From: Euglena gracilis
Lineage: Eukaryota
Assembly: GCA_039621445.1 (NCBI GenBank)
Contig: CP154954.1
Coordinates: 33,825,737 to 33,889,736 of the forward strand
Direction of reading: 5' to 3'
DNA length: 64,000 nucleotides
Part shown: piece by piece, positions 24,251 to 58,600 of the stretch
Layout of the letters: the number at the start of each line of letters is the position of its first letter
Numbering within the stretch: position 1 is the first letter of the stretch
Made by a program: the position numbers and the translations under genes
Notes under the pieces: generated by a model
What the model was told of the DNA's origin: nothing
The model's database searches: none
The model's input: only the letters and a program-made list of their open reading frames with translations

Positions 24251-24251
<1 letters not shown>
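24122..24251. repeat. Near-perfect ~130-bp palindrome centred on (AT)n
   Basis: Arms CCCCCCGGTTTTACGTGTGCCCC...CAAATGTGTTTAT and its reverse complement, with no spacer. Confidence 0.85.
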
Positions 24252-24302
<51 letters not shown>

Positions 24303-36757: not shown

Positions 36758-38399
36758 TCTTTTAGAACAACACAAGGGATTCCCCCCCCCCAAACAACTC
36801 GGAAACACAAGGCATTTGCCCCCCAAAACGACTTGGAAACACAAGGGCGTCCTCGAGTAATGACCGCACTGGCCGTTCGGCTGCATCGAGTTGTGCAAAT
36901 TTTCGACCTCTGTGATCTCCGCCAACACGTCCAGCGGGGTTGGCTTTTTTGGTTTGCCTTCGCTTTCCTCGGCGTTGAGAGGGCAGCGCCTCTTCCAGGC
37001 CGGAAATGGACACGGGCTGCAAAGATGTCTTCGCGCTTCGACGAGAGTTCTTGTTTTGGCTCTGACGCATCTGTCTTTTCCGCGTAACTCTGCATCGATC
37101 CCTGTCTTGCTTGCGGAGAAGAGCAGGCGCTGCGATGTCCTGTGCTTTTTGCGTGCAATGTTCTTGAGGCGTGCAGGGCCTCCGTTTTCCCCCTGCCCGG
37201 TGCCGTGGCGCAGCCACACCTACACCTCCGTGTCAATAAGGAGGAGCGGAGCAGGAAGGCAGACAGCGTGATTTTGAATGTCTTGGAGTCGGTGAGGACG
37301 CATTCTGGCCAGGGCAGTAGGTCCGGGGGGCGGAGGTACGGCCCCTCACGCCGGCGGCGCGGTCGCTCTCCGCCGGGTGCGCGTGCTTGGCTGAGGTAGG
37401 CACTGGCCGTCCGGCCGCATCGAGCTGTGCAGAATGTTGGCCTTGGGGACCCCGGCCGGAGATTGCCCGGTCGGAAATGGGCAAAGGCTGCCGAGATGTC
37501 TTGGCGCTTCGACCAGGCGTCTTGTTTTCGCTGTGACGCCGCTGTGGGGCAGAGTAGGCACTGCGATGTCCCGGGCTTTTTGCTTGGAGTTTCTTCTGGC
37601 AGAACGGCAGCGCGTCCGTTTTTCCCCTGACTCTGCCCAGTGAGGTGGCAAGGCTAGCCCCAGGCTGCGGCAAACGTTTTTGGCAGAGGGGGTGGCAGGA
37701 CTATGCAATCTGTGGACACTACTTTTGCTCCCAATGTCTTTGATGCAATCTCCAGGGCCCACTGTGATGGATTTTCCCCGGAGTTTCGTTGGAATTGACA
37801 TCCTCAGCAGTTGGGGGAATTTTTTTCACGGTGGGTAGCACAGCTTCACCCAACCGTGCCCCGGGCCCAGGGAAACGTCTCTTTTGGCCCTCGCCACAAG
37901 AGGAACCCCCTTGTGACTCCCTGTGCCGCCACAGGTCGCGGGTTGCTTACACTATGGGTGTTATGTACAGAAGAGAGAAGAGTGCCGAGTAACTGTTAAG
38001 AGTGTGGAGGTTAGTGGTAAGAGGAAGATGAGCAAAGGTCACCTTCAATATAGGGGGTGTTGGGGTCGCAGGGCGGGTCGCGGGGGGGTCGCGGGGGGGA
38101 AATGGATTTCGCGGCAGGTCATGTGTGACTTGTGTGACGTCGTCCTATCCTCTAATTTTAGATCCCAATTAGGAATTTGCGTGCCATTTGGGTCTGAAAA
38201 TAGGTCCAATTAGGAATTTGCGACCAATTTTTCGCGGTTTTGATTCCTAATTGAGTGGCAAATTCCTAATTAATGAAAACGGGATGGCGTGTTTGTGTCG
38301 GGATTTTGCTCTTCGTTGGGGGAAAGCACACCATTGCTCCCAGCATTGAGGGATCCATTTTTCTTTTAGGGGCTATAGCCGGCTTGCTGGGTCGCGCGT

Positions 38400-39755
38400 G
38401 CACTCTCTTCTCACCTTGTGGAGTCCAGGGCGGGCGGGTTACCCTTTGCGTGTGTGTTGCTTTTGCCGGCTCCACTCCCCTTTGTCGCCTCGTTGGGCGG
38501 ATACCTTTCGCCTGGCGTGTAGGCTCTGTTTTTTTTTTGGCGGCTTCTTTTTTTTGTGGGGGGGGCGCCTTTTTTGGGGGGGAGGTGTTTCCGTGGTGAA
38601 CCTCCGCGCTTTGTGGGTTGTCTTGGCCTTGGTCTTGATCGCTTTTTGGTGTGGTCTGCGGTGGGGGTTGGGGACTTACCATGGGTGGAGGGCCTCCACC
38701 CCTCCACCCACTCCTCCACGCGGTCCCTGGCGGATAGCTGCCGCGCCACGTGGCGCATGAGTGTCACTGATAGTGCTTCCTGCATTTCTTGCAGGGCCCT
38801 TGTCTTTGGCCATCCCCGCATGTCTGCGGTGGCCCTTTTGGTGACCTCAAACAGCACCGCCTTGGCAGAGGTCCCCAGGCCTCCCCATGTGCTCAGGCCG
38901 AAGGGTGAGAAGCCCCACCCCTTCGCCTGACACGGGGGGCCATCCGTCTGCACTTTCCTGGTTTCCACCTGGTTGCAATGCCTGCGGGCATTGTCCACCA
39001 CCAGTGGGTGCTCTCCCAGCCCCGCGGGGTGGCTGCAGACGAAAGCAACTGCCACGTGTTGCCCCCGTGACCAGTTGATGAGGAGAACATCGGCTGGTCT
39101 TTTGTTCGCCAAACACTCTGCCTCCTTCTCCACCGCAATGTTGTACCGGGCACACATCGCCGCAAAAGCATCTCGGAATGCATTGTGCCGTTGGGTGTTT
39201 CCATTCTGCTCGCAGCAGACGAAGTGATCCCTGAAGGGATCAATGGACCCTCGACACAGTGGGCACCCCGGCAGCGTGACCCCTGAAGGGAGGATGGGCA
39301 GGCCAAGCCACCACCGCAGTAGCAGCCGGTATTGGGTGTCCGAGAAAGCTGTGTGCTGTGCCTTGCTGGGCAAAGTCCGCAGCCATCCCGTTGCCACCGG
39401 TCCCTTTTGGCAAGCCCGTCTCACCCGGTCCCTGGAAGAGCCGACCGCCACCGTTGGGTGGCGTGTTCTGGTGCTGCGGAGGAGAGTGGGGTGGTGCCTG
39501 CGAGCCAGCTGGCCACGGGATCCATGTTGGGGCCAAGCTGTTGCTGCAACCGTTGTAGCGTGTCTTGCATGTCCGGGGATGGGGTTGCCAACACCGAGGC
39601 TGGCACCTCCACTGCTTGGCTGCCGTGCATCCCCAGATTCAGCAAGGCCGCCATCCGTGCCGCGGGTTGCAACACTTCGGGGTCCGAGATTCCGAGTCCT
39701 CCTTGGCGGATGGGCAGGGAGACTTGATGATCATGACTTGATGACATTGAGGAAG
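38400..39755 (-). mobile_element. Element A: 5'-truncated CRE-like non-LTR retrotransposon (thumb/linker, CCHC, restriction-like endonuclease); frameshifted
   Basis: QVSLPIRQGGLG, GWLRTLPS, LRWWLGLP, CPLC..DHFVCC, RHNAFRD, RPADVL, GFSPFGLSTWGGLG. The 3' limit is approximate. Confidence 0.85.
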
Positions 39756-40518
39756 TCCACCGACCAGTGGCACAGCCTACTGGATTTGAGTGTTCAGGAG
39801 GAGCAAGGCTATATACAGAGCTGAAGTGTGGTGAGGTAAGGGCAAGGGCAAAGCCCAAGCGAAAGGGGATGAGGAGTGGCGGGTGTTTGGTGTGCATGCG
39901 CCGGGCCCTTCGGGGCTGTGGTACCCGGAGGCTGGTGTAAGGGTCATAGTCACCTTACGGGGTCAGGATCATGCGATCCGTGGCTCTTTCGGCCACCCGC
40001 AGCTGCCGTGCTACTACGCGGGCCAGCGTGATGGCCAAGTTCTCAGTCAATTCTTGAAACCTTCGTTGTTTGGATGTTCCAGAGTACGAGTTGGTTGCGA
40101 GGCGGAGAACATCACGGAGGAGTTTGGAGGCTGCTGGCCCCGTGCACCCCCAGGGGTTAAAGGCTGCTCCAATGTACTCCCATTGGTGGCGGGCGCACCG
40201 ATCTTCCGCTTGGGATCGTTTGTGCATTTCAGCATCCGGTAAAGTACGTTGAACTCGGGTTAAGTTCAGAGGCCATCGTGAGGGTGCCAGCGGGTGTTCG
40301 ATGGTGATATCCACAGTAGGGTTGTGCCAATTAATCGGTTTGGGAAGTCGAACGATTAATTGCGATTAATCGGGGGGTCCCAGACGATTAACGATTAATT
40401 GGTCCATGTGTGATACTTTCGCAAACCAACCCAAAAAAAATCAAAATCCACAAAAATAACAACAAAAAATCGTAAGGGTGAGAGCCCTCGTCAACTAAAA
40501 TTTTTACTTTACTTAAAA

Positions 40519-40590
40519 TGGCGAATAGCTCAGTGGTAGAGCATAGGGCTTACAACCCTACAGTCCCGGGTTCAATCCCCGGTCGTCCCC
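40519..40590 (+). tRNA. tRNA-like unit (probable pseudo-tRNA), anticodon position TAC (Val)
   Basis: A box TAGCTCAGTGGTAGAGC, anticodon stem TAGGG/CCCTA, T arm CCGGGTTCAATCCCCGG, downstream TTTT. The acceptor stem is out of register. Confidence 0.5.
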
Positions 40591-40667
40591 CTTTTGGACA
40601 TTTTCCCTTTTTTCAGAAGAGTGTGTTATTGTGTTTAAAAAAAAGTGTGAGACTTTAGCCACCCAGA

Positions 40668-40739
40668 AGGCGAATAGCTCAGTGGTAGAGCATAGGGCTA
40701 ATAACCGTATGGTCCCGGGTTCAATCCCGGTTCGCCCCC
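40668..40739 (+). tRNA. tRNA-like unit (pseudo), anticodon position AAT
   Basis: Second copy of the same ~145-bp tandem unit; mismatch in the anticodon stem. Confidence 0.4.
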
Positions 40740-40805
40740 TTTTGGACCTTTTCCTTTTTTTTCAGAAGAGTCTGGTATTGTGTCAAAAAGGAATGTGTGG
40801 TCAGA

Positions 40806-40877
40806 AGGCGAATACCTTAGTGGTAGAGCATAAGGGTAACAACTCTACGGTCCCGGGTTCAATCCCCGGTCGCCCCC
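40806..40877 (+). tRNA. tRNA-like unit (pseudo), anticodon position AAC; truncated fourth copy at ~40960-40987
   Basis: Third tandem copy; degenerate D and anticodon arms, intact B box. Confidence 0.35.
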
Positions 40878-42334
40878 TTTTTGGACATTTTTCCTTTTTC
40901 AGAAGAGTTTGTTTTAGTGTTTAAAAGAAAATGTGTCGGAAATGTGAAATCCACCAAAAAGCGAATAGCTCAGTGGTGGAGTATAGGCAAAGGCCGTTTT
41001 TCAAAGGCCGAGCAAAGTCGGTTTTTCAGTGCTGGGAGTTTTGAGGGCAAATGTGATTTGCCGACCCCCCGGGGGGGGGTGGTGATTGACAGTTCTCCGC
41101 AAAAAAAAAAGCGACTGACTTTGTGTGGACTGGACCCAGACACAGGAGGCAAAGCACTTGGATTGGACAGCCAAATTCCTTCTGTTTCTATTGTGCTCAT
41201 TGCTTTTTAGCTTTTTTCCGCCGAGGCATACATGGAATATCGTACAGTCGCAAAATGTTCATGCGAACTGACATGAGGGCACGAATACTCTCCTCGGAGG
41301 TCGGAGGTCAGAATGAAGCAAACTTTGTGCAGAAAAGCTCTTTTGCAGGGTGTCGCCCAGACCACTTGGAGCTCAGACCACTTGGAATTAAATTGCAAGC
41401 GATGGGGAGGTCCCCAGATGCATTTCTGAGCCCCCTCCCAAAAATCCTTCATGGTCCATGGTGCATTTTTTTTGCTTCGAAAATGTGGGTTGCCAACTTT
41501 TCGCAGGAGTCATGGCTCCCCCCCCCAGGACCCCCCAGGACCCCCCAGGACCCCTCCCCCCCAAGACCTCCCAGGACCCCCCCAGGACCCCCACAGGGGG
41601 GCAATACCCACACGACCACTGATCGTGGAGTTCCGGGCGCCTCCGGACCCCCCATTTGTCAGGAATAAGCGATAAGCAACACACTACTCCTTTCCACACA
41701 CGCCTCTGAAGGGGCCATACTGAAAATTGCAATTGCAACTTTTGAGAGGAGCGGTGGAGCAGGGTGTGAAACGGTCTGATGAGCAGGGGGGGGGGGGCAA
41801 AAATTGGTGAAATTTTGGTTGCAGTTGCACCTCACATCAGTGTCATACCCTGGATACTTGTAAGGCGATGGATCGCCAATACTGGACAGGGTGTGGGCAT
41901 TCTGTCGGAGGGGACAGAGCGCCAAGTCGAGCCACCCATTGGCCCCATTGCGCTCTCAAGGAGGGCAAAAATTCTCCTGTGTGGCCCATTTTTTTGAGCA
42001 AAGGGATGCAGAAGGTTGTCAACAACGAGGAAATTTTGGTGAGATCACAGGTTCACTCATTGCAGGGGGGGGGTGAATCTCAATTGGAACAACAACTGTT
42101 TTGAACAAAAATGGCGAGGTTGGCGTTTATTATGAAAAAGTGAACGTGTGGGGGAAAAGGCACGTTTTTTGCCCGAAAAATGCAATGCCTTCGGAATCAC
42201 TGAAACAACCCCAAAAACCAAAATAGTACACTTCATACCAAACATTCATCGTGATGGGGCGAAAACCAGGATAACCACTGGAAAACCAGGATAAGAACCT
42301 CTTTACCTTGTTTATGGGTTGTAATTGTACAGCA

Positions 42335-42406
42335 AGACGAGTGGCCAAGTGGTAGAGCGTGTGTTCTATGACCGTGTGGTCGTGGGTTCGATTCCTGCCT
42401 CGTCTT
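42335..42406 (+). tRNA. tRNA-like unit (pseudo), anticodon position TAT
   Basis: Perfect acceptor stem AGACGAG/CTCGTCT and B box GGTTCGATTCC; weak D and anticodon stems. Confidence 0.4.
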
Positions 42407-42470
42407 TTAAAGTTCAACTTTTGTTGACAAAACCACCAACAAAAGTTGGATAAAATGGGTTACAAAACTT

Positions 42471-42542
42471 CATACATGGTGGGGATCGAACCCACGACCT
42501 CACGGCTGTGAAGTATGCGTTGTACCACTGAACTACATGCAT
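42471..42542 (-). tRNA. tRNA-like unit (pseudo), anticodon position CAC (Val)
   Basis: Acceptor stem ATGCATG/CATGTAT, T arm GTGGGTTCGATCCCCAC; anticodon stem mismatched. Confidence 0.4.
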
Positions 42543-43138
42543 TGTTACTTAACAGGAACATTTTCCATAATAACCTTAATCTTGAACATTGGGATGTATG
42601 ACATGGTGAGATGTTGTCTTGTTTCCGTTGACCTGTTTTTGTGGACCGATTAATCTCCCCCCACCGAACGATTCGATTAATCGGCGGCCACGGACGATTA
42701 GTCGATTAATCGATTAATCGAATCTACCCTATCCACAGCAAGGTGCTTCCCTTTGTTCCACCCCAGCAGGAGGAGATCAGCGTCGCGGGTGCCAGCCTCA
42801 CAGCCCTGTTCTTTGCGCAGGGTGATGCCTGAGCGTTGGCAGAGGTCGAAGATGGCGTCGCGGATGCAGTTGTGTCTTTCGGTTATGCCATTCCTTCTGC
42901 AAGTAAGGAGGTGGTCTCCGAAGGGGTTGACCGCCTCACCACACAAGGGGCACAAGAGCATGTCTGTTGTTGGGATGAGGGGTAAACCGGTCCAGAAGCG
43001 CAATAGCAGTCTGTATTCATCCGGTGCTAGGACAGTGTTCACGGACCTGGACGGCAGGACAGTCATCCAATTCTGAAGGAAGGCAGAGGACTGACAGCGA
43101 AGTCTGGCGATGTCCCGAAGAGGTGCACCCTCCTCCAG

Positions 43139-44579
43139 GGGGGCGTTTGGCAGGACCAACCTAGCCGGCTGGCCGGACCAACCTAGCCGGCTGGCAGACA
43201 AACCTAGCCAGCCAACATGTCGGCCGTCCAGCCGTCCGTCCAGATGAAAGCCACTGTCGCCAGCCGCCCGGCCATCCAGACCAAAACAAACAAAAAACAA
43301 AACGCACGCACGCCGTGCGCAGTGACGCCGTCTCAGGAATGAATGTGCGCACCGGAGGGGACCTAAGTTCGTTCTGCCCAAATAACGCCGGGTGGATTTG
43401 GGTGGATGGTGGAATGTTGGTGGTGGATGAAATACGGCCCCCCGTGGCTTAAAACGACAAAAAACCCGTAGGGGGCAGAAAAAGAGAATACGCCAGAGGC
43501 AACCCCTCTCAAAAACCCCCCAATTTTTTAGCTTTTTTGAGCAAGAGAACTTGTTGCACAGAAAAAAAAAGAATGCAAGAAACAAAAAAAACAAGTCTCA
43601 GGAGAAAACGAGCATCTCAGGACAAAACGTTTCTGGTCAAAATCTGGCACCATCTGGCCCAAAACAAAAAAAACCCATAAACAACTGCTGAAGAAAAAGT
43701 CCGTTTTTTTGGCAAAAAAAATTCCAGAGCTGTAATTTTTTTTGGTGGTTCAAGCCTTTAAAAAGGGAGAATGGGGGTTTTTGAGGTCGAGGAACCCAAA
43801 CTTCAAGAACTAAAAACAAACACACAAGAACATGGACAACAGAAAAATCAAGGCCGCACAAACCAATTAAGGTGGAACCGTTGCTTGCCAAGGAACCTTC
43901 AAGCATCTTGAACTTACTTCTCAGATGAAAAAAAGGCACACCTTTGATTGACTTCAGTTTCAGGTGCTCAAAACACTTGGTCATTCTCAAAACTTCTTTC
44001 CATTCAAATCCAATCTCAATGTCCTGTGAAAAATGAACCAAATGAGCATCATTTACTCAAACATGAACTAAATCCCTGTGGCTCCCATTCATCATCCAAA
44101 AGATGAACAGTGAAATGTGCCAGATGTAGCATGAAAGATGTCACAGAAACGTCCAGAAAACGTTCACAGGATTTGTTGGAACACTGTCTTAAAAAGACAT
44201 TTTGAAGACATGCCACAGACAAATGAAATGATGCTAATTCTTCAAAAGAAAAAAAGAAAGAAAATCTTCAAAAGACACTTCAAGATGGGCGTACCTGCTT
44301 CAATGTTCAAAAAATCCTGCATGACTGCATTCCTTATCCTTCAAATAGCTTGTACCCGAAGTCAGAATAAAGATAAACCAGGAATTCCAAGAGGGAGAAA
44401 CACTTTTCTGACAGACAATTAGGAAATACCGGGCGTGGTCGCCTGCGCTAGACCTTTCGCGATTTTGAGACCAACCTAGCCGTCCGTCCGTCCAGCCAAA
44501 GTGCACCATGTCCAGCCGTCCGTCCAGGTGAAAGGAATTTTCTCTAGCCGTCCGTCCGTCCGTCCGTCCGCACGCCTCC
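43139..44579. mobile_element. PIF/Harbinger-like non-autonomous element inserted in element B
   Basis: 3-bp CAG duplication (43136-43138, 44580-44582); imperfect TIR GGGGGCGTTTGG / GGAGGCGTGCGG; subterminal CTAGCC and GTCCGTCC repeats at both ends. Removing it restores the RVATL|EEGAP reading. Confidence 0.7.
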
Positions 44580-46654
44580 CAGGGTTGCCACGCGAACGAC
44601 GTGGAAACGTTCGGCCCACCACGATTGAGTGGAATGATCTGGGGTGGAAGAGGCCAAGGAGGAAGGGTTGGCGATCCAGGAGGCCAGTGGTTCGCCGTGC
44701 GGGCCCAAAGTATCAAGTTGCAGGGCAAGGTGATTTGGTTCCAATGTAAGGCAGACAGGGTGCCCCCACGATGTCACAGGCCGCGTGCCGGATGGAATCT
44801 GAGATGATTTGCACACTCTGAGTACCGGAGCAGATATTCGTTTGACGCAGGAGGTGTGTCACGCGACAGCCGTCCAAGCAGTTGCGTAGCAGACAGTGTT
44901 GCAGTTGGGGGTCCGGCAGTTGTTGGAGGCGCAAGATAGTATCCTGGAATTTTTCAGATGCCTTGGCCCAGGTAATGTCAGAGAAGGTGCTGTCGCCGGG
45001 GTAGTCACAGGGTACCCCAAGGCACAGGATGCCTGTTCCCGGTCCCCATGGAGTGACTGGGAAGTTTTGTGCGAGGTGTTCGGGAGGGAAGATCTGAAGG
45101 ACCGGGGGTTTTGGGGTGGCACAGGGGATACCTGGTCCCCACAAGGCCCTTTCTAGGGGTTGAGTCGGAGCCCGATGGAGCCGAGTGCCGTGGCCAAAGA
45201 AGCCGCAAAGGGCAAAACATCGACGGCAGGGCCGATGACAGTTCCGTCGTCCAAATACCATGCCTGCCACACCGTGTTAGGCAGGGTGGCCGAAGCCTGT
45301 TGCAGCGCCTGATGCAGACCCAAGGCAAAGGCAATGGGCCCACAGGTGTCCCCCTGATGGACGCCGGTCCTGCTGTGACAGATCACTTCGCCCTGGCAAA
45401 GTAGCGGGACGTCTTCCCCGTACGAGAAGCGGAGCCAATTGTAGAGGGACGGGCACAGGATCGATCAATGGTGTTGAAGGCATTGGATACATCGGCCTGA
45501 AAAATGACCCAGTCACCATCCGTTGGCAAGGAGGATATGGCGGCCTGTATCGCAAGCCCCACTGTCTCCGCACCGTACCGAACTCCCACTCCCAATTGCA
45601 TCGGGAACAGCTGAGATGTTTCTGTTTTGCATTGCGGATGTCGCAAAAGCATTTTTCCAATGAAACGGCGGAGACAATCCCCCACGGCGATCGGGCGCAG
45701 CCCACCGTCCTTTTTTGTGAGTGGGATCAGGTTGGATGTCCCAAAGATGATCGACGCATTTGTTGGTAGAGAGCCCTCCCAGGCCATCTGAGCCAGGGAT
45801 CCCAAGGCTGTGTGTTGGGGGCCTGCGCCTGCCTCGCGGTCCAACAGGTCCCGAAGGTGTTGAGGACGCAGACCAGATGGGCCGGGGGCGCTGCCGCGGG
45901 GGAAAGAGGCCGCGGCTTCCTGCACAATTGAAGTCCAGTTGAAGTCAGAGGCTTGTGGAATGTTGCCTACCCCAGGCAGCGGCAAACTGGCGCGGACAGG
46001 AGCCCCCGGTGGATGGAGCGAAAGAAGTTTCTCCAGAACTACTGGGTCCCCGGAGGATGCTAGGGGCAGAGAGGTGAGGGCGTCCACGGCCTTGCCGAGA
46101 GCTCCTTCTTCAACCAGACCGCGTACCCGGTCCATCAGACCACGCGTCACAGAGTCCGAGGTAGAGTTAGAGGGATTCGCACGAGTGGAGGGACGCTTCC
46201 GCCGTCCGTCAGAACGAATGGGATCAAACAGGGCTCCAACCTCCCCTGCATGCCATTGGGAGAGTCTCTTCTCCAGGAGGCAATGTAACGTGCGTCGATG
46301 GAAAGACGAGTTTTTGGGAGGGGCACCAAGAACCAGTTTCGGAAAAATGAACAGGCGGTGTAAGGATTCCCAGGTTTGTGAGCGGAGAAAGGTCTGAATA
46401 GCAGATGCCAAGGCATCAGAGATCGCGTGACGACATGACAAGGGAATACGTCGGAGAGTGGGGCAGTTGGTGGAGAGAACCACCTGCAGATTAGGCTGCA
46501 GTTCTGGACACGGGTGGGAAAGGGGAGTGCCGTCCCCAACGGGCTGGTTCGATGAGGTGGGAAGGGGGGAGGAGGGGTGGGAGGAAGCATGGGTGGTCGA
46601 GACATTGAGGGATCCATAACTGGAGACGCGACATTTTTCACGATCCCAGCTCAG

Positions 46655-46679
46655 CTTTCTGAGTGTCTATTTTTTTTCG
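46655..46679 (+). other. Euglena-type spliced-leader exon sequence, genomic copy without the SL intron
   Basis: CTTTCTGAGTGTCTATTTTTTTTCG matches 25 of the 26 nt of the Euglena gracilis SL as I recall it (ACTTTCTGAGTGTCTATTTTTTTTCG). It is followed by ATCTCC rather than a GT donor, and an ATG lies 18 nt downstream. Confidence 0.85.
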
Positions 46680-46697
46680 ATCTCCGCATAAACCGCC

Positions 46698-47231
46698 ATG
46701 TCGGGGGCCGCGGCCCCAGAAGACCCGCCAGCCGTGCTGGAAGTGCCGCTGGACAACGTCATCCTCAACAAAAAATTGAATTCGGTGCTGGAGCAAGTGA
46801 GCCTGGTGGCTCAGAATATGGTGGTATTAGCAAGCAAAGTGGAAGAGCTGGCCGACAAGGTGGAGGAAGGACGACCGGGAAAAAGGAGACGACAAGAAGA
46901 CGAAGCCTACGAGGAGTTCCTCAAAAAAAAACACCAGAGCCGATACATCCCCCGCCACCTCCGACACCAGCCTGAGCAGCCCTTACCGCCCCCCTGGCTA
47001 CAACACACACACACACACCACACACACCACACACTTTTAAATCCCCAGGGGAAGCATGGAAGGACTGCCCAGCAACAACAGCAGCCACAGCAGCAACAGC
47101 AGGAACAGCTGCAACCCCAAATGGGGCAAATGGGCAGCCAAATGGGGGCCCAGATGGGCAGCCTCCTGGGGGGCCCTGTGGGGAACACCCCCACCATGAC
47201 CGCCAGTGCAACAGCCAACCAAGGGCTGTAG
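46698..47231 (+). CDS. ORF1-like protein (predicted coiled coil, basic NLS-like KRRR, Q-rich tail), 177 aa
   Basis: First ATG after the SL; intronless; heptad-like LNSVLEQVSLVAQNMVVLASKVEELADKV. Confidence 0.65.
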   Translation: MSGAAAPEDPPAVLEVPLDNVILNKKLNSVLEQVSLVAQNMVVLASKVEELADKVEEGRPGKRRRQEDEAYEEFLKKKHQSRYIPRHLRHQPEQPLPPPWLQHTHTHHTHHTLLNPQGKHGRTAQQQQQPQQQQQEQLQPQMGQMGSQMGAQMGSLLGGPVGNTPTMTASATANQGL

Positions 47232-48210
47232 CTCCCCACCGACCTGCTGCGACAGCTGCTGCTACAAATCATGTGGATGCTGCTTGGACATGTTCCAAAT
47301 TTAAATTTAAATTCAAATGGCAGCCACATGTCCATTGCTACCGATGCCCCGCTCTTAATGGCAGCTGGACCCTCTGGACCCTCCCTCCCACCATCTCCTT
47401 CATTTGTGCCCTGCCAAATCGAAGGGGGGGGGGAGTGGAAGAGGGGGGGGAAGTTTTTGGAAAAACTCCCACCACTGATGGTCACCCCCTGGTCCCCCCC
47501 CCCCCCCTCCCATCCATCGATTTCTCCACTATCTCTTCCGATCTGGAGGTCCTCCCTCACCTCCCCCCCCCCCCCCCCCCCCCACCCCCTTCCCTGCTGC
47601 CCCTACCCCCCCCGCTCAGCCGACCCTGTCCCCCCCCCCTCCCCTGGCACGATGTCTCAACATCTAGAATTTCTCTGGTATCGATCCTCGCCCTCTCGAG
47701 CCCATCCCCCCCCCCGGAACGCTGGAGATCTACGACTGGCCAACACCGTGGCCCCCCCCCAGCCCCCCTCTCCCCTAGACACCTCTCGTCCCCCTCTTTC
47801 CTCTCTCTCCCTCCCTCGTCCCTCCAAGCATGAAGTCACACCCAGGCGGGAGGCCCACAAAAAATGCACTACAACACCACAAAACCAGAGGATTTTGGAA
47901 AAACTCAGGACAAGGTCCACTGAGGAAAAGAAAATGGTCACCGACCTGGTGGATCAAAAAAGGGCTGCACAAAAAAAGGAGCACACCTTAGCAGCCAGTT
48001 CCAGAGCCCCGGCCAACCTGCCGACAAACTCGATTTCAGCAGCAGACGATTGGTCTGTGCTGTCTTCGACGGACGCCTCCATCTGGGGGGAATGGACCGG
48101 GTCCAGAAAAAAATACAAAAAAGTCCTCGTGGACCACTGGCTGGAGGGAATCCATATCGCCGCTTCCCCCCTGCCCCCCCACCCCCCCGGTCGCACCTGG
48201 TCTGACCTAG

Positions 48211-51200
48211 CGGACGACGACGTCCAGCTGCTCCTGTATCCCCCCTGCGCGCAGCCCCAAGAGGGGGGGGGGGGGCGGCCGGCTACCGCCCCTCGGGGGG
48301 GGCCGGCGTCACGGGCATACGACGGGGTGGCATCACGCCGACGGTCACAGTCGCCCCGGCCTCTCGAGGCAGCTCTGCCACAGGGATATCCTCTGCTGCG
48401 GCGATATCGAGGAGAACCCGGGGCCTCGCCCGGGGGGACCGGCAAGCCCATCCCCCCCCCTGGCACCCGACGACGTCTGGGAGGAGATCTACTGGACTGG
48501 CCAACACTGGCGGTGGCTACGTCTGCTCACCCCGGCAACCGCCGGCCCCTCGTCGTCGGGGACGGCAGCACACCTCGCGTCGGCAGGGTCCGAATTTGCG
48601 ATATGCCTCTTGTGCTCTCAGCACGTCAACCTGTCGTCCCTCCAAGGCATGCAGTCCCATCAATGCCAGGCGGGTAGGCCCATGGGCAACATTTTCTCTC
48701 TCCCCTCCATAAGAGAAGACTCGTGGCGCTGGAGGCTACAGCACCTGGAGTCCCTCCCAAACGGCGAGTGGTGGCTGGTACACTGCCAAATGTGCGGATG
48801 GTCGACTGCGACCCCGTACCCAGTGCCCATAGTTGCCCACATGCAGATCTGCCAACCACCGTCTCTCTCTGACGTCGATAGCGACCCGGAGGATGACGAT
48901 GCCGACGACGATGACTCCGCGCGTCCCAGACGGGGAGCGGCCGCTCTTGGGCCCAGCAGCCCGGCACCGGCACCCCCCGGGGCCTCACCCCCACCCCACG
49001 TAGCTGCCTCCCCCATAGACTCACAGGGAGCCCCGCGTGGGCGGCTCCTCACCTCCACACTTCGCCGGCAGGCCGCCGGCTGCCGCCGCCTGGGGGCTCC
49101 CCCGCAGGCTCGGAGCGGCAGGGGCACAGACATCCTCACTGCGGGAGATGTGGAGAGCAACCCCGGCCCCACGAGCTCCAGGCGGGCTTCATCCGTTCTC
49201 CCCCCCCTCGCACCACGCGAAGACTTCATGCTGGACACCGAGTGGTTCCAGGCGGTGGTGCGGGCTCTGTCCCCCCATAACCCGCCCACCATCGACGCTT
49301 TCGCCGACCAAAATAACACCCAACTGGACGCCTTCTGGTCATCAAGGGAGGATGCATTCCTCCAGAATTGGAACTTGCCAAACCCGCTGTGGTGCAACCC
49401 ACCCTTCTCCCTGCTCCCCCGTGTTTTGGAACACGTCCTTCGATATGGGGGCAACATCATCCTCCTCGCACCGGAGTGGTCCACCGCGCTGGCCGGCCTG
49501 CGGCGCCTCTCCTCGCATTCCGTGACCTTACCGCGATGCCCCATCTACCGGGCCCGGGGGACAGCGCTGCTGCCAGCCCCCACGTGGTCGACCACAGCCC
49601 TACGGATATGCCACACCGGCAGCGGCAGCCCATGCGGCGCCCGGCCCCCACCGGGTCCCCACCGGGGCGCTGACCACGGACGGCAGCTCTCGCACCACGC
49701 GCACTCCCCTTACCCCCTTGCGCCGCTCCTCTCCCCTGGCCAACAACGCCTCATCATAGAACGCCGCTCCACTCATGGCGGCGAAGTCTTCCACCTAGGG
49801 GACTATGCAGGCTGGACATTCCTATTCCACCGGAACGCCCTGTGGGACATCCGCGGTCAGACCCCCTGCTGGTGCCCTCGCTGCGGCCTGTGGCAATGGC
49901 CTTGGGACTGCCCCACGTTGCTCCCTCTTCAGTTTGCCGCCCTTAGACCACCGCTCTTACGCCCGGCTTTTCGGCTGACCCCCACCCCCCACTCCCTCCT
50001 CGACGAGCCACGGGCCCCCCTGGATCTGGCAGCGGTAGCCAACTCACTGCCAAAAAACGGCCATCGTTGTCCGCCGCGGGGCAGTCCTTTCATACGGGGG
50101 GCAAACCGCGGACGGGGTAGCCTCCTCACCTGTGGCGATGTGGAGGAGAACCCTGGGCCAGCCAAGCGCCCGGCCTCCGGGCCACCTCATGGCGCACCGG
50201 CTGCTGCGGATGCCCGGGACCACGACCACCTCTTTCTGGACCTGGCCCACCCGGAACTTGACGCCGCGGTAGTTATCGACAGCGCGGGGCAGGAGTCCAA
50301 CCTCCGGGGACGGCCCGCGCACAACCTTGTCGTGGGCACTCCCCCATGCGACATCACCCACGTCCTCCAACAAAGAATCTCGACCCTTATTTACCTGCCC
50401 TCGGCCTGCCAGCAACCTGTCTTTGACACTTTGGCAGATGCCATCAACGCATACACGCACGCACCCTCGGACGCTGCTCTATTCAGCGTCCTATCCTTCC
50501 CGAAACTCGTCCTCCGACCGGTGTCGACTACCAAACCACCGCCGGCAGCGGAGCTGGAGTCCATCCTGCTGAGGCGTACCAAACTGTTCCGCGAGGGGGA
50601 CTACGGCACCCTTCTGACAGAGGCACTAAAGGACGCACAGGCTCGACACTCCGTCGTGGAAACCAGGGCGGAAAAACGCTCAAGAACGCAGCCGACCGCC
50701 CTCAGTGAGGCCATCACGAGACGGGTGCGCACCCTCACCGCAGAAGGGGCGTCCGCGAAGGCAGTCCAGCTACTGCTCTCTGAGGGCGCGCACCAACCGG
50801 ATGATCCGGATGTCTGGGCTGCCCTGGAGAAGTTGCACCCCAGCGGCAGACAGGTGGACACCAACCGCCTCCCGCGACATGTTAAGCCCTTCCCTGAGAA
50901 CCACATCCCGGAATGGGAGGACAGACTGAAGGAGGCCATCCGCCGTTTCCCACGGGGTTCCGCCGCAGGCCCGTCGGGCCTGCGGCCCAGCCACCTCCAA
51001 GACTGTCTTCGTAGGCCGGGCCGGGGAGCCAAGCTGATCACAGCCCTTGCGCAGCTGACCCAGTTCTGGATTGACGGCCAGCTACCACCGCACCACGCCG
51101 CGGCCTGGTGCTGCGCGAATCTGACCCCACTCCGCAAGAAGGACAACGGGGTGCGGCCAGTGGCGGTTGGGGAGACCATCCGCCGCCTGGTAGGGAAAAC

Positions 51201-51215
51201 GCTGCTCCGCTCGCC
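48211..51215 (+). CDS. Polyprotein segment of element C: 2A, zinc fingers, 2A, Dam-like MTase, 2A, RT N-terminus
   Basis: The frame of ORF 48610..51825 is stop-free back to 48211 and contains DIEENPGP (48403-48426), DVESNPGP (49147-49170) and DVEENPGP (50137-50160). Confidence 0.85.
49225..49610 (+). CDS. N6-adenine DNA methyltransferase-like domain (phage Dam / DIRS1-type)
   Basis: IDAFADQNN..DAFLQNW..LWCNPPFSLLPRVL..IILLAPEW; catalytic NPPF at 49396-49407. Confidence 0.8.
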
Positions 51216-51599
51216 CCCACCCAGGTCGGGGTTGGGGTACGGAACGCCGCCGAGGCCGTTGCCCTGGGCATGCAGCACCTCGTGCTTCAGCTGGGGGACA
51301 CCTCACCCTGGGTTTCCCTCCAGGTGGACAACTCCAATGCTTTCAACAGTTGACCGAGGGGCGATCCTCACAGAGGCCGAGACCCGTACACCCAGTCTGT
51401 TCAATTTCCGGAGGTTTGCATACAGCGGGCCCGTCCCCCTCTTCTGCGGGGGCCGCACCATCCTTTCCCAGAGGGGCACACACCAGGGCTGCCCTCTGGG
51501 CCCCATTGGGTTCGCCCTGGCGCTGCAGCCGCTGCTGGACCAGATAACCAGGGACGGCCAGGGCTTGGTACCTACCCCGGAAACACAAAAAACAACCAC

Positions 51600-53159
51600 T
51601 GGAACAGCTGGTACCTGGACGACGGCCTCCTGGTCGGAACCCCCGACAGGATTGAACACTGCCTCCGTTTCCTGCTGCAAGAGTCCCACCGCATCGGCCT
51701 TGGCCTCAACCTGCAGAAGTGCGTCATGTGGGGCCCGGGAGCGCGGAGTGCACCCAGTTGCGACAGATTCCAAGTGGTCCCTTGGTCACCAGGGGAAGGC
51801 ATTACCGTGCTCGGAATCCCAGTAGACCACCCCGCGTCCTCCGACACCACCAAGAAAGCGTGGGCGGATGCTGCCGCCAAGATCGAGAAGGCCTCATCTA
51901 CCATAACGTCCCTCACCGACGCCCAGGTGGCACATCACCTTCTGCGGAGCTGTCTAGACGGCTGCAAAGTGAACCACCTCCTACGCGCGTCCGACTCGTA
52001 TGGCAGCCAAGATCAGGTTACAGGCTGCTCGGAGGTCATCATGAACGCCTTCGAGGACATACTGGGCACGGCACTGAACCCACAACAGCGGACACAAGCG
52101 TCGCTGCCCCTATCCAGCGGGGGCTGCGGCCTGCGCGTCCCGTCCTGCACTCAGCCCGCAGCCAGGATCTCCTGCCTTGCAGACTTCTACTCAGACGGGG
52201 CCAGGCGCGTGGGTGTGCCCGACTACGCATCCGGCCTGCAGCTACCCCTGGTCGCGCCCGTCCTGGACGACCTCCGGGGCAGGCTAGGAGCCAACCATGC
52301 CACGGTCACCACCTTCCTCCACAACCCACAACGACTCGCCTCCGCGGACCAAGAACCCCGGAGGCAAAAGTGGTGGAACCACGAGCTGGGCAAAAAGGCG
52401 ATGGATGGCCTTGTGGACCAGGCCCGGCCCCGCGACCAGAACCGCCTCCTTGAACAAGCCACGGGGTTCGGACACGGGTGGATGGCGGCCACCCCTTCCA
52501 ACAACTCCCACACCACCTTCTCTAGCGAGGAGTACACCTTGGGACTGAAGTGGTGGTTAGGGCTTCCGGTGCTGGAGGACGTCAGCCAGCCGTGCACAGG
52601 GTGCGGCCAGCCTCTGGACCAGGAAGGCGACCACCTGCTTTGCTGCCGCAGGAACAACTTCTCAGCCCGGCACAACGCTGTTCAGGACGCTCTGTTTCTA
52701 ACCTTGTCCAACAGCGGTCACCGGGTGCAGAAGGAAGTTTCCCTGCCAACGGCCCGAGACAGTCACCTACGCCCGGCGGACCTCCTGCTGGACTGCTGGT
52801 CCGAGGGGAAGCCGACGGCGCTGGACGTTACCGTCTGCCACGGATGGCAAGCGGCAGAACACACAGCGACCCGCGAACGCTGGAGATCCTTCCTGAAGAG
52901 GAGGGAGGACGCCAAAAAGCAGAAATACAACGTGCCATGTCAGCAAGCAGGGTGGGGCTTCACACCTTTCGCCCTCGGGACATGGGGTGGCATGGGACCG
53001 GAAACGGCCAAGACACTGAGCAGAGTGGCCAAACGCGCATCGTCCTGGCAACAGGGCGCTGAGCGCGAAACCAAACAAGCGGAAATCTACCAAAATGTGG
53101 CCATCGCCTTGCTCCGAGAAGTGTTCCACCTCTTACAACCCAAGCACGTCCTCCGTTAA
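51600..53159 (+). CDS. Element C RT C-terminal half, CCHC and restriction-like endonuclease
   Basis: WYLDDG, LNLQKC, QASLPLSSGGCG, CTGC..DHLLCC, RHNAVQD, RPADLLL..ALDVTV, PFALGTWGGMG. Confidence 0.9.
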   Translation, partial: WNSWYLDDGLLVGTPDRIEHCLRFLLQESHRIGLGLNLQKCVMWGPGARSAPSCDRFQVVPWSPGEGITVLGIPVDHPASSDTTKKAWADAAAKIEKASSTITSLTDAQVAHHLLRSCLDGCKVNHLLRASDSYGSQDQVTGCSEVIMNAFEDILGTALNPQQRTQASLPLSSGGCGLRVPSCTQPAARISCLADFYSDGARRVGVPDYASGLQLPLVAPVLDDLRGRLGANHATVTTFLHNPQRLASADQEPRRQKWWNHELGKKAMDGLVDQARPRDQNRLLEQATGFGHGWMAATPSNNSHTTFSSEEYTLGLKWWLGLPVLEDVSQPCTGCGQPLDQEGDHLLCCRRNNFSARHNAVQDALFLTLSNSGHRVQKEVSLPTARDSHLRPADLLLDCWSEGKPTALDVTVCHGWQAAEHTATRERWRSFLKRREDAKKQKYNVPCQQAGWGFTPFALGTWGGMGPETAKTLSRVAKRASSWQQGAERETKQAEIYQNVAIALLREVFHLLQPKHVLR

Positions 53160-53510
53160 CCACGGGAGGAGCTATGCCAAAAAAAAAAAACACACACACA
53201 ACACAACCACACACCCACACCCACACACGCACACACACCCACACCCACACACGCACACATGCACACCAACACACCACAACCATCCGCCCGCCCTCCCGCC
53301 CGCGCCAAGCAGGCCGCCTCACCCCTACCGTCAGCCACCCCAGCCGTCAGCCACTCCAGCCGTCCCTCTGCGCCTTATATTGAAGATGGGCCTTGCCCGT
53401 TTTCCTCCTGCCCTGCCCTGCACCACCTGTATATACTTTTAACCTCCTCCGGACCTTCAAACCCAGTAGGCTGTGCCACTGGTCGGTGGATTCGGTTCGC
53501 CCCACCACCG

Positions 53511-55680
53511 CTATCCGGCTACGTCGGCCCCTCCTAGCTCAAACTACACGCCAGCTGGAGGAGGTTGTACATTTGGTCCTTGAAAAGGGACCACCCATTG
53601 GTGTTGACCTGAATACCAACAAATGCACCCTTTGGGGGCCAGCCTTCCAACCCGACCGTTTTCTCTTCCTGGAGGGGTTGCAACGCATCCCCGTAACTCC
53701 ATACATTCCTGGTTCCGGAATCAAGTCCCTCGGGGTTCCAATTTGCCATCCGGAGGACGGGACATTTGCCGAACGTGTGTGGTTTGGGCGGTGCGAAGAA
53801 GCTATGAAGGCGTGTTCAGCCTTGCAGAAGGTGCCTTCTGCGCACATCCACTTCACCATTCTAAGGCTGTGTCTGGACGCGTGCAAGGTTAACGACCTGT
53901 TGAGGACTACCCCAATTGGCCTTGCAACCATGCAGTGCACGCTGCTAAGCAAAACCCTGCGGAATACCGCCAGCATCATTGTCGGGCGGTTGCTGGAAGA
54001 GGACCAGTGGCGCCAGGCCACCTTGCCTGTCCGGTTGGGTGGGTTGGGCATCCGGGACCCTACCACGGAGCGCCCGATCGCCAGGTGGGCCGCCACACTT
54101 GACTTTCTTGTTCGCGGCGACCGCGTCCTCGACTTGCCACCCATCTGTGGGATGAACCCCCTACCTTCGGAATTTACCGCCCAGGTGGAGGCCATCAAGG
54201 GTCTATGTGAGCTCCCACCGATTGCAAAGGCCTTTGTTGAGGACCCAAAAAGTCCGGAGATGCTGCCTCAAGAAATGACGGCACAGAAATTCTGGGGACA
54301 ACAGTGTGCAAAAGCCCGACAGCAAGCTCTGTACAACTCACTCACGGGTAGCGATAAACTGAAAATGGCATGTCAGATGAAGCCACATGCTATGGCTTGG
54401 GCCTCCGTTACGCCGTCAGCCGCCACAAGGACGCTCATACCAACAAGGGAATTCCAGGCCCTGATGCAATGGTCCCTGGGTGCTCCGGTTGTTTCGCCTT
54501 CAGATGCCTGTCCCGGGTGCCCTCGGTGCCACAACCCCTTGGACGCAAGAGGCCATCACCTCGTTTGTTGCCACCGGAACAACATTGTTCGGCGACACGG
54601 GGCGGTGCAGTCCTACATCCTTGGGCTGGCCCAAAAGGCAGGTTTCCCGGCCAGAAGAGAGGAGAGTTGCCCTGATGGTTCCCGCCCGGGCGACGTATTT
54701 GTGATGCGATATGATGCAAACGGTCCGGCGGCAATCGATGTGACCGTTCGCCACCCCCTTGCACCTTCCCGCGTACGGCCAGGATTGGAAGACCTTGGGA
54801 AATGGCATGAGAGCCAGGAGGAAGACAAAATCAAAAAGTATGGAGACGGTTGTAAGCGCAGAGGGTGGACGTTCATCCCCTTTGTCCTCGATTGCTACGG
54901 AGGAATGGGGGAGGCAGCGCTTGCCTTTGTTGGAAACTGTGTTCACTTGCTTGCGGGACAACATGACGCATGGGAGAGGCGAGCAGCGGAGGCAAACTGC
55001 TGGCAGGGCCTCAGCATGGCCCTTGCCAGAGAACTGGCGAAACAGCTCGTGTGGGGCCAATGCCCTGACGACCTCAACGAAGGAGGTGGCATGGACACTC
55101 ACCACCCATACAGCACATGAGCTACCCCTTCGGGCTCCACTATCCCGAAGCAACCCCTCCGCCTCCGGCGGTGCTTCCTGAACTAGCGGAGGCCCGGAAA
55201 CGGCCCGCCACGCACAGCCAAGGGGGCAGCGAATCGGGACCATGCCATGATATATAAGGAATGCCCCCTGCAACAACCAAGAACCAATGCAGCACGTCGG
55301 AGCTGCAACGACGCCCCCGAGGAGCCGCAGGGCGTGAAAGACAGCTGAAGCCGGAATCACCGGCCCACCCGTCATCAACACCCAGACCTTAAACGGCACC
55401 GAGCCCTGCCACCTCCCCATTGCCTGCCCAACCACTCTGACTCACGTGGACGAAGAACTCCGGAAGCTGATCAACAGCGGCCTCACCTCGCGCCTTATAC
55501 TGTTCTCTTTGCTCGCCCCTTTTACCTTCCCTCCCTTCACCAGCGTGCACAGACTGTTGCCTCTGTACATAGCCTTACTCCCCTGAACTCTTCAAATCCA
55601 GTAGGCTGTGCCACTGGTCGGTGGATTCGGTTCGCCCCACCACCGTTCGGCAGGTTGCATTCCCAATCAAAAAAAAAAAA
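53511..55680 (+). mobile_element. Element D: 5'-truncated CRE-like non-LTR retrotransposon; ORF remnant to 55120, 3' UTR, poly(A)
   Basis: LNTNKC, QATLPVRLGGLG, CPRC..HHLVCC, RRH, RPGD..AIDVTVRHP, PFVLDCYGGMG; A12 tail at 55669-55680. Confidence 0.9.
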
Positions 55681-58600
55681 GCTCAAACACAAACCCGTTG
55701 CCAATGCCCCCACCAGGGTGCCTCGGCCGTCCACGCTTCTTCACACCCCTCCGTCCCACTCCCCTCTTCACCGCACCAACCCCTCGGGAATGGCACTCCT
55801 GTGTCTCTCCCGTGCCCAGATATGCAGCCCGATCTGCAGGTGGTTCTCTCCACCAACTGCCCCACTCTTCGCCGTATCCCACTGCCAAGTCGTCACGCAA
55901 TTTGTGACGCCCTTGCATCCTCCATTCAGACCTTTCTCCAAGCCCAAACCTGGGAAGCTCTACACCGCCTGTTCATTTTTCCGAAACTCGTTCTTGGTGC
56001 CCCTCCCAAAACCTCGTCTTCCCACCAACACACATTGCATTGCCTCCTGGAAAAGAGACTGGCACAGTGGCACGCAGGAGAGTTTGCCGCTCTGTTTGAT
56101 CCGCTTCGCTCTGACAGACGGCGAAAGCGGCCCACCACCCGCGCCAACCCCTCTGGCTCTACTTCTGACTCTGTGGCACGTGGTCTTATGGACCGGGTGC
56201 GCGGACTCGTTGAAGAAGGGGCCCTCGGCAAGGCCGTGGACGCTCTCACCTCTTTGCCCCTGGCATCGCCCGGGGATCCAGCAGTGATGCAGAAGCTCAT
56301 TTCGCTCCATCCACAGGGGTCTCCATTACGAGCCAGTTTGCCGCTGCCTGGGGCAGGCAATTCTCCACAAACTACTGCCTTCAACTGGTCTTCAATTGTG
56401 CAAGAAGCTGCAGCCTCTTTCCCCCGTGGCAGCGCCCCCGGCCCACCTGGTCTCCGTCCACAACACCTTCGGGACTTGTTGGACCGTGAGGCCGGGACAG
56501 GCCCGCTACACAGCCTTGGGGTCCCTGGCTCAGAAGGCCTGGGAGGGCTCTTTGCCAGCAAAAGCCTCGATCTTTTTTGGTACGTCAAACCTGATCCCAC
56601 TTACCAAAAAGGATGGCGGTCTACGGCCGATCGCCGTGGGGGATTGCCTGCGGCGCTTCATTGGGAAAATTCTGTTGCGACACCCGCAGTGCAAAGCGGA
56701 AACGTCTCAGCTGTTCCCGCAGCAATTGGGAGTGGGGGTGCGCTACGGTGCGGAGACAGTCGGGTTGGCGGTACAGGCCGCACTGGCGTCTCTGCCAGTG
56801 GATGGCGATTGGGTGGTTTTCCAGGCCGACGTTTCCAACGCCTTCAACACCATTGATCGATCCGCGTTCCTGCAGGCATCCCTGGACCTCTGCCCGTCCC
56901 TTTACAACTGGCTCCGATTCTCCTACGGAGAAGACGTCCCACTTCTTTGCCAGGGTGATGTGCTGTGTCACAGCAGGACCGGTGTCCATCAAGGGGACAC
57001 ATGTGGGCCCATTGCCTTTGCCTTGGGTCTCCATCAGGCGCTGCAACAGGCTTCGGCCAATTTGCCCAACACGGTGTGGCAGGCGTGGTACTTGGACGAC
57101 GGTACTGTCATCGGCCCTGCCGTTGATGTTCTGCCTTTCACGGCTTCTCTGGCCACGGCACTTGGCAGCGTTGGGCTCCACCTCAACCCCTCCAAGTGTG
57201 CCTTATGGGGACCAGGTGTACCCTGTGCCACTCCGAAACCCCCGGCTCTTCAGATCCTGCCTCCCGACCACCTTGCACAAAACTTCCCGGTCACCCCATG
57301 GGGACCGGGCAGTGGCATCCTGTGCCTAGGGGTACCTTGCGACTATCCTGGTGACTGCACCTTTTCTGACACCACGTGGGCCAAGGCATCCGAAAAATTT
57401 CAAGCTACCATCTCGCGCCTCCAACAACTGCCGGATCCCCAACTCCAACATTGTTTGCTGCGCAACTGTCTGGATGGCTGCCGCGTCACGCACCTTCTGC
57501 GTCAGACAAACATTTCCTCCGGGACGCACAGTGTGCAAGTGATCTCCGACTCCATCCGGAGTGCTGCCTGTGACATTGTGGCGGCACCCCTGTCTACCTT
57601 GCATTGGAAACAAATCACCTTGCCGTGCAATAAGACAGGGTGGGGCATCACAGACCCCCAGTTGGAAAGACCAGCTGCCCGTTGGGCTGCTTGCGTGGGT
57701 TTTTCCCAACGAGCGCCCGGCTTCAATATCCCTCCGCCCTGGCGCATGCTCCCGCTACCAGATACCATCCCCGTCGCCCAACTGGCTCGTGACACCTTGG
57801 GCCCGCACAGCGAACCATTGGCTTCCTGGATCGCCAACCCTTCTTCCTTGGCCTGTTCCACCCCAGATCACTCCACTCAATCGTGGTGGGCCGAACGTTT
57901 CCACGCCGTTCGCGTGGCAACTTTGGAGGACGGTGCACCTCTTCGGGACATTGCCAGGCTTCGTTGCCAGTCCTCTGCCTTCCTTCAAAATTGGATGACC
58001 GTCTTACCATCCAGGTCGGTGAATACCGTCCTAGCTCCGGACGAATACAGACTGCTTCTACGCTTCTGGACTGGCTTACCCCTGATCCCAACAACGGACA
58101 TGCTTCTGTGCCCCCTGTGTGCTGAGGCAGTCGATCCATTTGGCGATCACCTCCTGGCTTGCAGAAGGAATGGCATAACAGAAAGGCACAACTGTGTTCG
58201 TGACGCCATTTTTGACCTGTGCCAACGCGCAGGCATCACTCTTCGCAAAGAACAGGGATGCGAGGGTGGCACCCGTGACGCTGATCTCCTCCTCCTGGGG
58301 TGGAACAAAGGGAAGCATCTCGCTGTTGATGTCACCATTGAACACCCGCTGGCCCCATCACGGTGGCCTCTGAACTTGACCCGAGTTCAGCGTACTCTAC
58401 CAGACGCTGAAATGCACAAGAGAACACAAGCTGAAGAACGGTGCGCCCGCCACCAGTGGGAGTACATTGGGGCTGCATTTAACCCCTGGGGGTGCACAGG
58501 ACCGGCAGCCTCCAAACTCCTACGCGATGTCCTACGCCTCGCGACCAATTCATATTCTGGAACAGCCAAACAACGAAAATTTCAGGAATTAACCGAAAAC

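Follow-up and report, generated by a model that had tools for sequence, protein, structure and literature searches.

The sequence analyzed here, referred to as the window, is a 64-kb stretch of Euglena gracilis DNA. From 38.4 kb onward, it consists of a nest of related elements, one of which (C) is led by a copy of the spliced leader (SL). The following elements were delineated:

38681-39747, minus strand: G, a related element
39785-46604, minus strand: B, an interrupted retrotransposon with a restriction-like endonuclease
38359-46604, minus strand: composite insertion of B then G, head to tail, with later insertions inside and 13-bp direct repeats at its borders
46655-53190, plus strand: C, the SL-led element
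from about 53371: D0, a 3' UTR fragment of ~165 nt
A tail at 55669-55680, plus strand: D, 5'-truncated
55719-58858, plus strand: E, 83% identical to B at the DNA level
59462 to beyond the window end, minus strand: F, also with 2A motifs

The reverse transcriptases (RTs) of B and C share 32-36% amino-acid identity. The initial annotation had described the DNA upstream of C as an unrelated element rather than SL-gene sequence; the latter part is correct, and "unrelated" has to be dropped in view of this identity. The 13-mer TTGAGGGATCCAT has exactly two matches, at 38346-38358 and 46605-46617, that is, at the outer borders of B plus G (two matches were obtained in 0 of 100 shuffles). Thus, B and G form one composite insertion of 8.2 kb with a target duplication. 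Its end is separated from the SL of C by 37 nt. When the composite is removed, 46618-46654 adjoins the unique DNA that ends at 38358; this original upstream flank of C has no SL-gene character. On the plus strand, C, D0, D, and E also follow one another head to tail, as a chain. Both chains fit template jumping by an RT that leaves one template at its 5' end and resumes at the 3' end of the next.

Element C and its immediate upstream flank are organized as follows:

46618-46654, no strand assigned: upstream flank of C, the 37 nt of original flank ending in ...CAGCTCAG, unlike SL-gene upstream sequence
46655-46679, plus strand: spliced-leader exon in DNA, positions 2-26 of 26, without intron, exact match
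46680-46697, plus strand: 5' UTR of C, 18 nt, ATCTCCGCATAAACCGCC; in sequencing run X15, further contigs also have its first bases, ATCTCC(G), after the SL
46698-47231, plus strand: ORF1, 177 codons and TAG, coiled-coil-like, then Q-rich; frame shared with the next open frame
47232-48402, plus strand: Pro-rich continuation of the first polyprotein module, with a frame break near 48262
48403-48426, plus strand: 2A-like peptide 1, DIEENPGP, assigned by motif
48427-49146, plus strand: Cys/His-rich module between 2A-1 and 2A-2, with only a weak zinc-finger match below the cut-off
49147-49170, plus strand: 2A-like peptide 2, DVESNPGP, assigned by motif
49171-50136, plus strand: Dam-like N6-adenine methyltransferase module (PF05869), NPPF at 49396
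50137-50160, plus strand: 2A-like peptide 3, DVEENPGP, assigned by motif
50161-52592, plus strand: reverse transcriptase region, FPRGSAAGPSGLRP at 50947, YLDDG at 51612-51626, tblastn matches to the RTs of E and F
52593-53159, plus strand: CCHC knuckle (52593-52646) and restriction-like endonuclease, RPAD at 52770, ALDVTV at 52818, stop codon TAA at 53157-53159
53160-53190, plus strand: 19-nt 3' UTR and A12 tail (53179-53190), followed by a CA-rich microsatellite

The open frame that follows the TAG of ORF1 is Pro-rich, comprises 481 codons, and lies in the same frame as ORF1. A frame of 1204 codons carries the three 2A-like motifs, the Cys/His module, and the Dam-like module. C is defective, with the in-frame TAG at 47229 and two frame breaks, the one near 48262 and another at 51561-51600.

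C carries an RT domain. Its RT matched those of E and F by tblastn with E values of 1e-45 to 1e-97, and the RTs of E and F, like those of C homologues, pass the Pfam profile RVT_1 (PF00078); the RT pieces of C itself, split by the frame break, reach only 13.4 bits for RVT_1. Downstream of the RT lie a CCHC knuckle and a PD-(D/E)xK-type endonuclease, in which the columns C25, C28, H38, C42, D87, D102, and K132 are invariant in 24 aligned sequences. An AlphaFold (AF2) model of the last 212 residues, built from these 24 sequences, had a pLDDT of 91.1. In a Foldseek search of the PDB with this endonuclease model, the top 7 matches were all R2 proteins (E values of 2.3e-6 to 1e-3); a PDB sequence search with the relative P0005 yielded 0 matches. 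By its modeled fold, C is an R2-like non-LTR retrotransposon with a restriction-like endonuclease, since all 7 best fold matches were proteins of R2 retrotransposons.

Upstream of the RT, three motifs of the form D(V/I)ExNPGP are located at module borders, and from these motifs 2A skipping is predicted. The Dam-like module contains NPPF and is a borderline case for PF05869, for which the cut-off is 28.1 bits: the module by itself scores 29.4 bits, and the long frame scores 27.1 bits. A search of metagenome and run assemblies with the N-terminal RT piece retrieved 51 longer proteins of at most 49% identity, none of which bears the name CRE or NeSL. By our own pattern search, 14 of the 51 contain at least one 2A motif, and precomputed PF05869 assignments exist for 4, of which 3 also have RVT_1, indicating that the module architecture is a property of the clade. 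In this R2-like clade, the polyprotein is divided by one to four 2A-like peptides, and a Dam-like module is found upstream of the RT. Relatives that share the module layout (P0004, P0005, P0007, P0010, P0018, P0021, and P0024) are 45-49% identical to C. Relatives, too, have a long, non-conserved, Pro-rich first module before the first 2A. Homologues of ORF1 were found neither in two database searches ("longer" and "near") nor among the 51 RT relatives, and of 596 pattern matches to ORF1 in metagenome contigs, 0 were confirmed. In viral contigs, the SL pattern had 0 matches and the RT query had one pattern match, which was unconfirmed. Pfam detected nothing in seven other long frames of the window or in the upstream frame of F.

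Features that may be marks of target-primed reverse transcription were seen at the locus: the A12 tail of C, the 5' truncation of D, a read depth that rises toward the 3' end (see below), and the 13-bp duplication around B-G. For C itself, no target duplication was found: 46595-46660 and 53170-53330 share no word of at least 7 bases. For the chain C-D0-D-E, no match of the spacer was detected near 58800-59500.

The SL of E. gracilis is given as a 26-mer in PMC6242988, and its primer form as a 28-mer beginning with ACAC in PMC5654406. A pattern search of the 64-kb window located the SL 24-mer TTTCTGAGTGTCTATTTTTTTTCG at 46656-46679 with 0 mismatches. This is the single match in the whole window even if up to 3 mismatches are allowed, and a match was obtained in 0 of 100 shuffles; a second SL relic, searched for across the window with a shorter 17-mer probe, was not found. 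Together with C at 46655, positions 46655-46679 correspond to positions 2-26 of the 26-nt SL in 25 of 25 bases, so that what had been annotated as an almost complete Euglena SL exon is exact over this length. SL position 1 (A) is replaced by G at 46654; farther upstream the window reads CAGC, and the longer ACAC form of the SL is unmatched.

At its 3' end, the copy stops exactly at the splice donor point. Metagenome contigs were scanned with the 24-mer for comparison, and 6 contigs with 7 SL occurrences were found. In every one of the 7, ACA or ACAC stands before the SL, and both GTAT and an Sm-like AATTTTTG(G/A) come after it. In C, the exon is followed by ATCT (ATCTCC...), in agreement with the earlier remark that no SL intron donor is present. 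The 18 nt from 46680 to 46697 contain no ATG and separate the SL from the ATG at 46698 (context CCGCCATGT), also as first described. Thus, C begins with an intron-less SL, both ends of which are as on a mature mRNA. The RNA folding of 46655-46800 was no better than that of shuffled sequences (z 0.96). As a side observation, two of the environmental SL-gene contigs, L002 and L006, contain TTAGGG-type repeats ~130 nt downstream of the SL gene, and L006 harbors two SL genes 782 nt apart.

We compared the flanks of C with SL genes and 5S units, as had been suggested, and detected no likeness beyond the exon. Aligned to the window, the 6 SL-gene contigs, which derive from environmental euglenids that are not certainly of the same species, matched only over 24-25 nt of exon, apart from GT microsatellite matches. 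Rfam at gathering score retrieved only 4 tRNAs from the whole window, with no 5S, SL-type RNA, or ribozyme, and nothing from 46300-47300 at E<=1. The 3' flank of C after the A tail is a CA-rich microsatellite and not an SL intron. SL-gene sequence on both sides, as in an insertion into an SL gene, is therefore absent from C when judged against these environmental reference genes: the exon alone matches.

Further copies were sought in public sequencing runs, in which a fraction of up to 0.49 of the words sampled from 46605-50250 was present. Four runs were mapped to 46000-53180 at 90% likeness; their kinds (DNA or RNA) are guesses. In X1, X6, and X7, probably DNA, all 30 bins were covered, and the summed depth was high and increased toward the 3' end. 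Relative to C, the contigs of these runs are 2 bases longer at 48262, and where C has 38 nt at 51561-51600, they have 6 nt. Precisely these differences join the three frames of C, showing that C belongs to a large family characterized by one long ORF and is itself slightly damaged. The bin containing ORF1 was as deep as the rest of the 5' half (in X7, 113 as compared to 80-118 in the next covered bins). As this was the case in three probable DNA runs, ORF1 is multi-copy.

The fourth run, X15, had a depth of 215 in the SL bin, while the next highest value was 60 and most others were below 8. In addition, it showed a loose end at 46655 that we take to be an Illumina adapter. Because of the maximum at the SL bin and this adapter-like end, X15 is probably an RNA run. 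Among its listed contigs, one of 220 nt spans 46658 to 46876 with 21 differences and represents an SL joined to ORF1 of a copy ~90% identical to C. Other listed SL contigs leave the window after ATCTCCG (46686) or ATCTCCGCATAA (46691); they are other SL-led molecules with the start of the 5' UTR of C. Hence, the junction recurs, and its recurrence is consistent with an origin by splicing and by DNA-encoded SL alike, because contigs hide RNA ends and the DNA copy has the SL itself. No contig bridging ORF1 to the RT part, or B to the SL, was present among those listed; for ORF1 and the RT, this is explained by the repeats at 46998-47108 and 47550-47598, which break contigs. The joints 46462>46654, 46676>47150, and 46709>46655 (with 11 letters in between) were each seen in one contig.

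Genomic flanks are known from one copy only, which is C in this window, and two independent parallels come from other records. The first is the distant relative P0006 (1751 aa, predicted on a contig of 5915 nt), the N-terminus of which reads MTGRRRK-FLSVYFFS-MPTG... The segment FLSVYFFS is the in-frame translation of the SL 24-mer and directly precedes a Met, from which the ORF continues with a Pro-rich module, a 2A motif, and an RT passing RVT_1. An SL translation before Met was thus found in at least 1 of the 51 relatives, and this count is a lower bound because gene callers usually take the first ATG as start. In P0006, the SL is preceded by 21 nt or more of coding sequence that is not SL, so that the contig is not simply the 5' end of an mRNA.

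The second parallel is L007, a 988-nt contig in the record of a bacterial metagenome-assembled genome (MAG). At 700-820, it contains a G, the full 26-nt SL, and ATCTTCTCAGG... (ATCTTC...), without intron. Upstream of the SL are degenerate TAGGGG repeats, and the downstream part is too short to identify. L007 is clearly foreign to the MAG and is likely a euglenid contamination and another SL-tagged retrocopy; no RT match was found in the genome record that contains it. The distance from the SL to the ATG is 18 nt in C, 0 nt in P0006, and 68 nt in L007.

We propose, with a probability of roughly 0.7, that C is a near full-length cDNA, made by target-primed reverse transcription, of the trans-spliced RNA of an R2-like element. 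A trans-spliced template is indicated because the SL copy begins within one base of the RNA 5' end, stops at the donor, and is joined to sequence that is not intron. The initial annotation had already suggested that the element RNA was trans-spliced and then reverse-transcribed to its 5' end, and SL ends as on mature mRNA, together with flanks that are not SL gene, support this. A jump of the RT onto free SL RNA was considered and rejected: it would have carried the intron along, and none is present. The trans-spliced RNA appears to have been the element's own, since ORF1 shares its frame with the 481 codons, ORF1 is multi-copy, the junction recurs, and P0006 has a comparable arrangement. SL trans-splicing may be the regular route of this family. 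The G at 46654, which also precedes the SL in L007, may reflect copying of the cap, as far as two cases can suggest.

An alternative that we regard as unlikely is that an ancestor, with or without ORF1, captured the SL once and that the SL is now inherited as DNA; expression would then depend on read-through or on the SL relic as initiator, and no fresh trans-splicing would occur in each cycle. Such a capture would explain why the SL is present in the DNA of both C and L007, why non-SL coding sequence precedes it in P0006, and why no AG stands directly before ATCTCC in the daughter copy. For the SL-ORF1 contigs of ~90% identity, a junction inherited from long ago is as good an explanation as repeated splicing. 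Against it, the SL of C is intact, although 25 nt give this argument little power, and we know of no promoter activity of the Euglena SL. Moreover, the sequence following the SL differs among C, P0006, and L007, suggesting separate acquisitions in different lineages.

The host retrocopy that had been put forward as another explanation would take the form of a 5' fusion, in which the element RNA had its 5' end somewhere downstream of 47231 and the RT, on arriving there, switched to a trans-spliced host mRNA, so that SL, 18 nt, and ORF1 are a host retro-fragment. The lack of ORF1 homologues in the 51 relatives and two database searches, the TAG that divides ORF1 from the rest, and the missing ORF1-to-RT bridge among the listed contigs are compatible with this, and the chimeras C-D0-D-E and B-G fit a template-jumping RT. 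However, the three probable DNA runs show ORF1 to be multi-copy, the probable RNA run shows it joined to the SL, and the 481-codon frame continues that of ORF1. The Pro-rich first modules of the relatives are also non-conserved, and that of P0006 begins at the SL. The fusion is thereby weakened, and we retain it as a minor rival of low probability. Finally, an insertion targeted to an SL gene (of the SLACS/CRE/CZAR or NeSL-1 kind), also named in the initial annotation, in which the endonuclease cut the gene and the exon is target DNA, is very improbable: although restriction-like endonucleases are typical of site-specific lineages, and SL exons are listed among the targets in PMC4640811, neither side of C, judged against the environmental SL genes, shows an SL intron, the upstream part of an SL gene, or 5S; the match ends at the RNA 5' end, where the window reads CAGC and all 7 real occurrences read ACA(C); and the entire exon lies at one side of the element.

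If C derives from a trans-spliced element RNA as proposed, the cycle could run as follows. An element without a promoter would be transcribed within a longer host transcript, to which the spliceosome would add the capped SL at an acceptor immediately before ATCTCCGC. Translation of the resulting capped SL-element mRNA would yield a 2A-divided polyprotein with the N-terminal module, the Cys/His module, the Dam-like methyltransferase, and the RT-endonuclease. The same RNA would then serve as template for reverse transcription, which would begin at its A tail and stop at most one base short of its capped end. The acceptor would be lost on copying, and in the daughter copy C no AG is present directly before ATCTCC; an SL-free master copy with an AG acceptor was not encountered among the sequences analyzed. 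As the initial annotation had suggested, trans-splicing would give the element its cap and its defined 5' end, with neither a promoter nor a ribozyme of its own being needed.

It is conceivable, at a tentative level, that the whole clade of euglenid R2-like elements gains its cap and 5' end by SL trans-splicing, which would replace the ribozyme of R2, and that the DNA-borne SL is reused as an acceptor region or internal initiator. In nematodes, the SL sequence of the SL gene is itself a promoter element. If the SL were reused, the element would carry its own 5'-end signal. If trans-splicing held for the clade, this would be an RNA-level counterpart of SLACS/CRE/NeSL elements, which reside in SL genes.

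Non-LTR elements without promoters need a translatable RNA with a defined 5' end. Known solutions are an internal promoter, co-transcription with ribozyme cleavage, and insertion into SL genes. SL-led full-length copies point to a fourth route, in which host trans-splicing caps and trims the transcript. In mechanism class, SLACS/CRE/CZAR of trypanosomatids and NeSL-1 of nematodes are closest to C: they, too, are non-LTR elements with a restriction-like endonuclease and a tie to the SL system. However, they cut inside the SL exon and insert into SL genes, the halves of which flank them, whereas in C the whole exon is at one side and an SL-gene flank is lacking. The tie of C to the SL system would be at the level of RNA (trans-splicing) and not of DNA. 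Animal R2 elements share with C the single ORF and the order of RT, CCHC knuckle, and restriction-like endonuclease. R2 resides in 28S rDNA, and its 5' end is formed by an HDV-like ribozyme; in contrast, C has neither ribozyme nor rDNA according to Rfam in the window, and it has 2A-separated modules and a Dam-like domain. L1Tc/ingi of trypanosomes are euglenozoan non-LTR elements like C and have an N-terminal 2A peptide. L1Tc uses an APE-type endonuclease, whereas C has an SL and a restriction-like endonuclease. For L1Tc, an internal Pr77 promoter and unspliced transcripts are described in PMC1874656.

The closest analogue in kind is provided by dinoflagellate retrogenes, also called "recycled" cDNAs, in which DNA-encoded DinoSL relics are read as reverse-transcribed trans-spliced mRNA in PMC5585692, PMC6050394, and PMC12014239. 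According to PMC5585692, genes for "RNA-dependent DNA replication" are enriched among the SL-relic retrogenes of Symbiodinium. Like C, such retrocopies begin, in genomic DNA, with an SL that lacks its intron. C differs in being an autonomous R2-like element in a euglenid, with a complete SL that is not trimmed at an internal AG and with no stacked relics. Dam domains are described for DIRS and DAM-LTR elements, including those of E. gracilis, in the preprint 10.64898/2026.05.21.726589, where LINE-like RTs are noted as a puzzle; the main text contains the term "spliced leader" 0 times. Like C, these retroelements have a prokaryote-like adenine methyltransferase domain, but those described are DIRS and LTR elements, while C is non-LTR. 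A search of the main texts of the open-access literature retrieved no report of an SL-led retrotransposon in euglenids. An SL relic would be a built-in marker of full-length retrotransposition in Euglena and could be used to date or count events, as for the dinoflagellate retrogenes. The combination of 2A peptides, adenine methyltransferase, and R2-type core is of interest for the study and engineering of R2-like retrotransposons.

Additional features of the locus were noted. A 3' UTR tail, ...TGTAYATAGCCTT...CAAATCCAGTAGGCTGTGCCACTGGTCGGTGGA, is common to B, D0, and D (39770-39830 on the minus strand, 53427-53510, and 55563-55645). It includes a possible hairpin, CCAGT...ACTGG, and may be a recognition site of the RT; the 3' UTR of C has just 19 nt. 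The stretch interrupting B contains four tRNA genes (Val-TAC, Ile-AAT, Ile-TAT, and Val-CAC) at 40518-42542, and three tandem units of ~149 nt at 40520-40927 contain or resemble the first two of them (Val-TAC and Ile-AAT). The 9-mer AGCTCAAAC has exactly two exact matches in the window, at 53536-53544 and 55680-55688, which are the 5' junctions of D and E; it could mark a target or a junction, or be a product of chance. Just ahead of the SL of C is AGCTCAG, and its 6-base likeness (AGCTCA) to AGCTCAAAC may be due to chance. CA/TG-rich microsatellites are located at 5400-5640, 6400-6560, 8900-9140, 17200-17400, 18650-18750, 24240-24310, and 53191-53280, the last of which abuts the A tail of C. 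Some elements with restriction-like endonucleases are listed as microsatellite-specific in PMC4640811, so that a target preference is conceivable.
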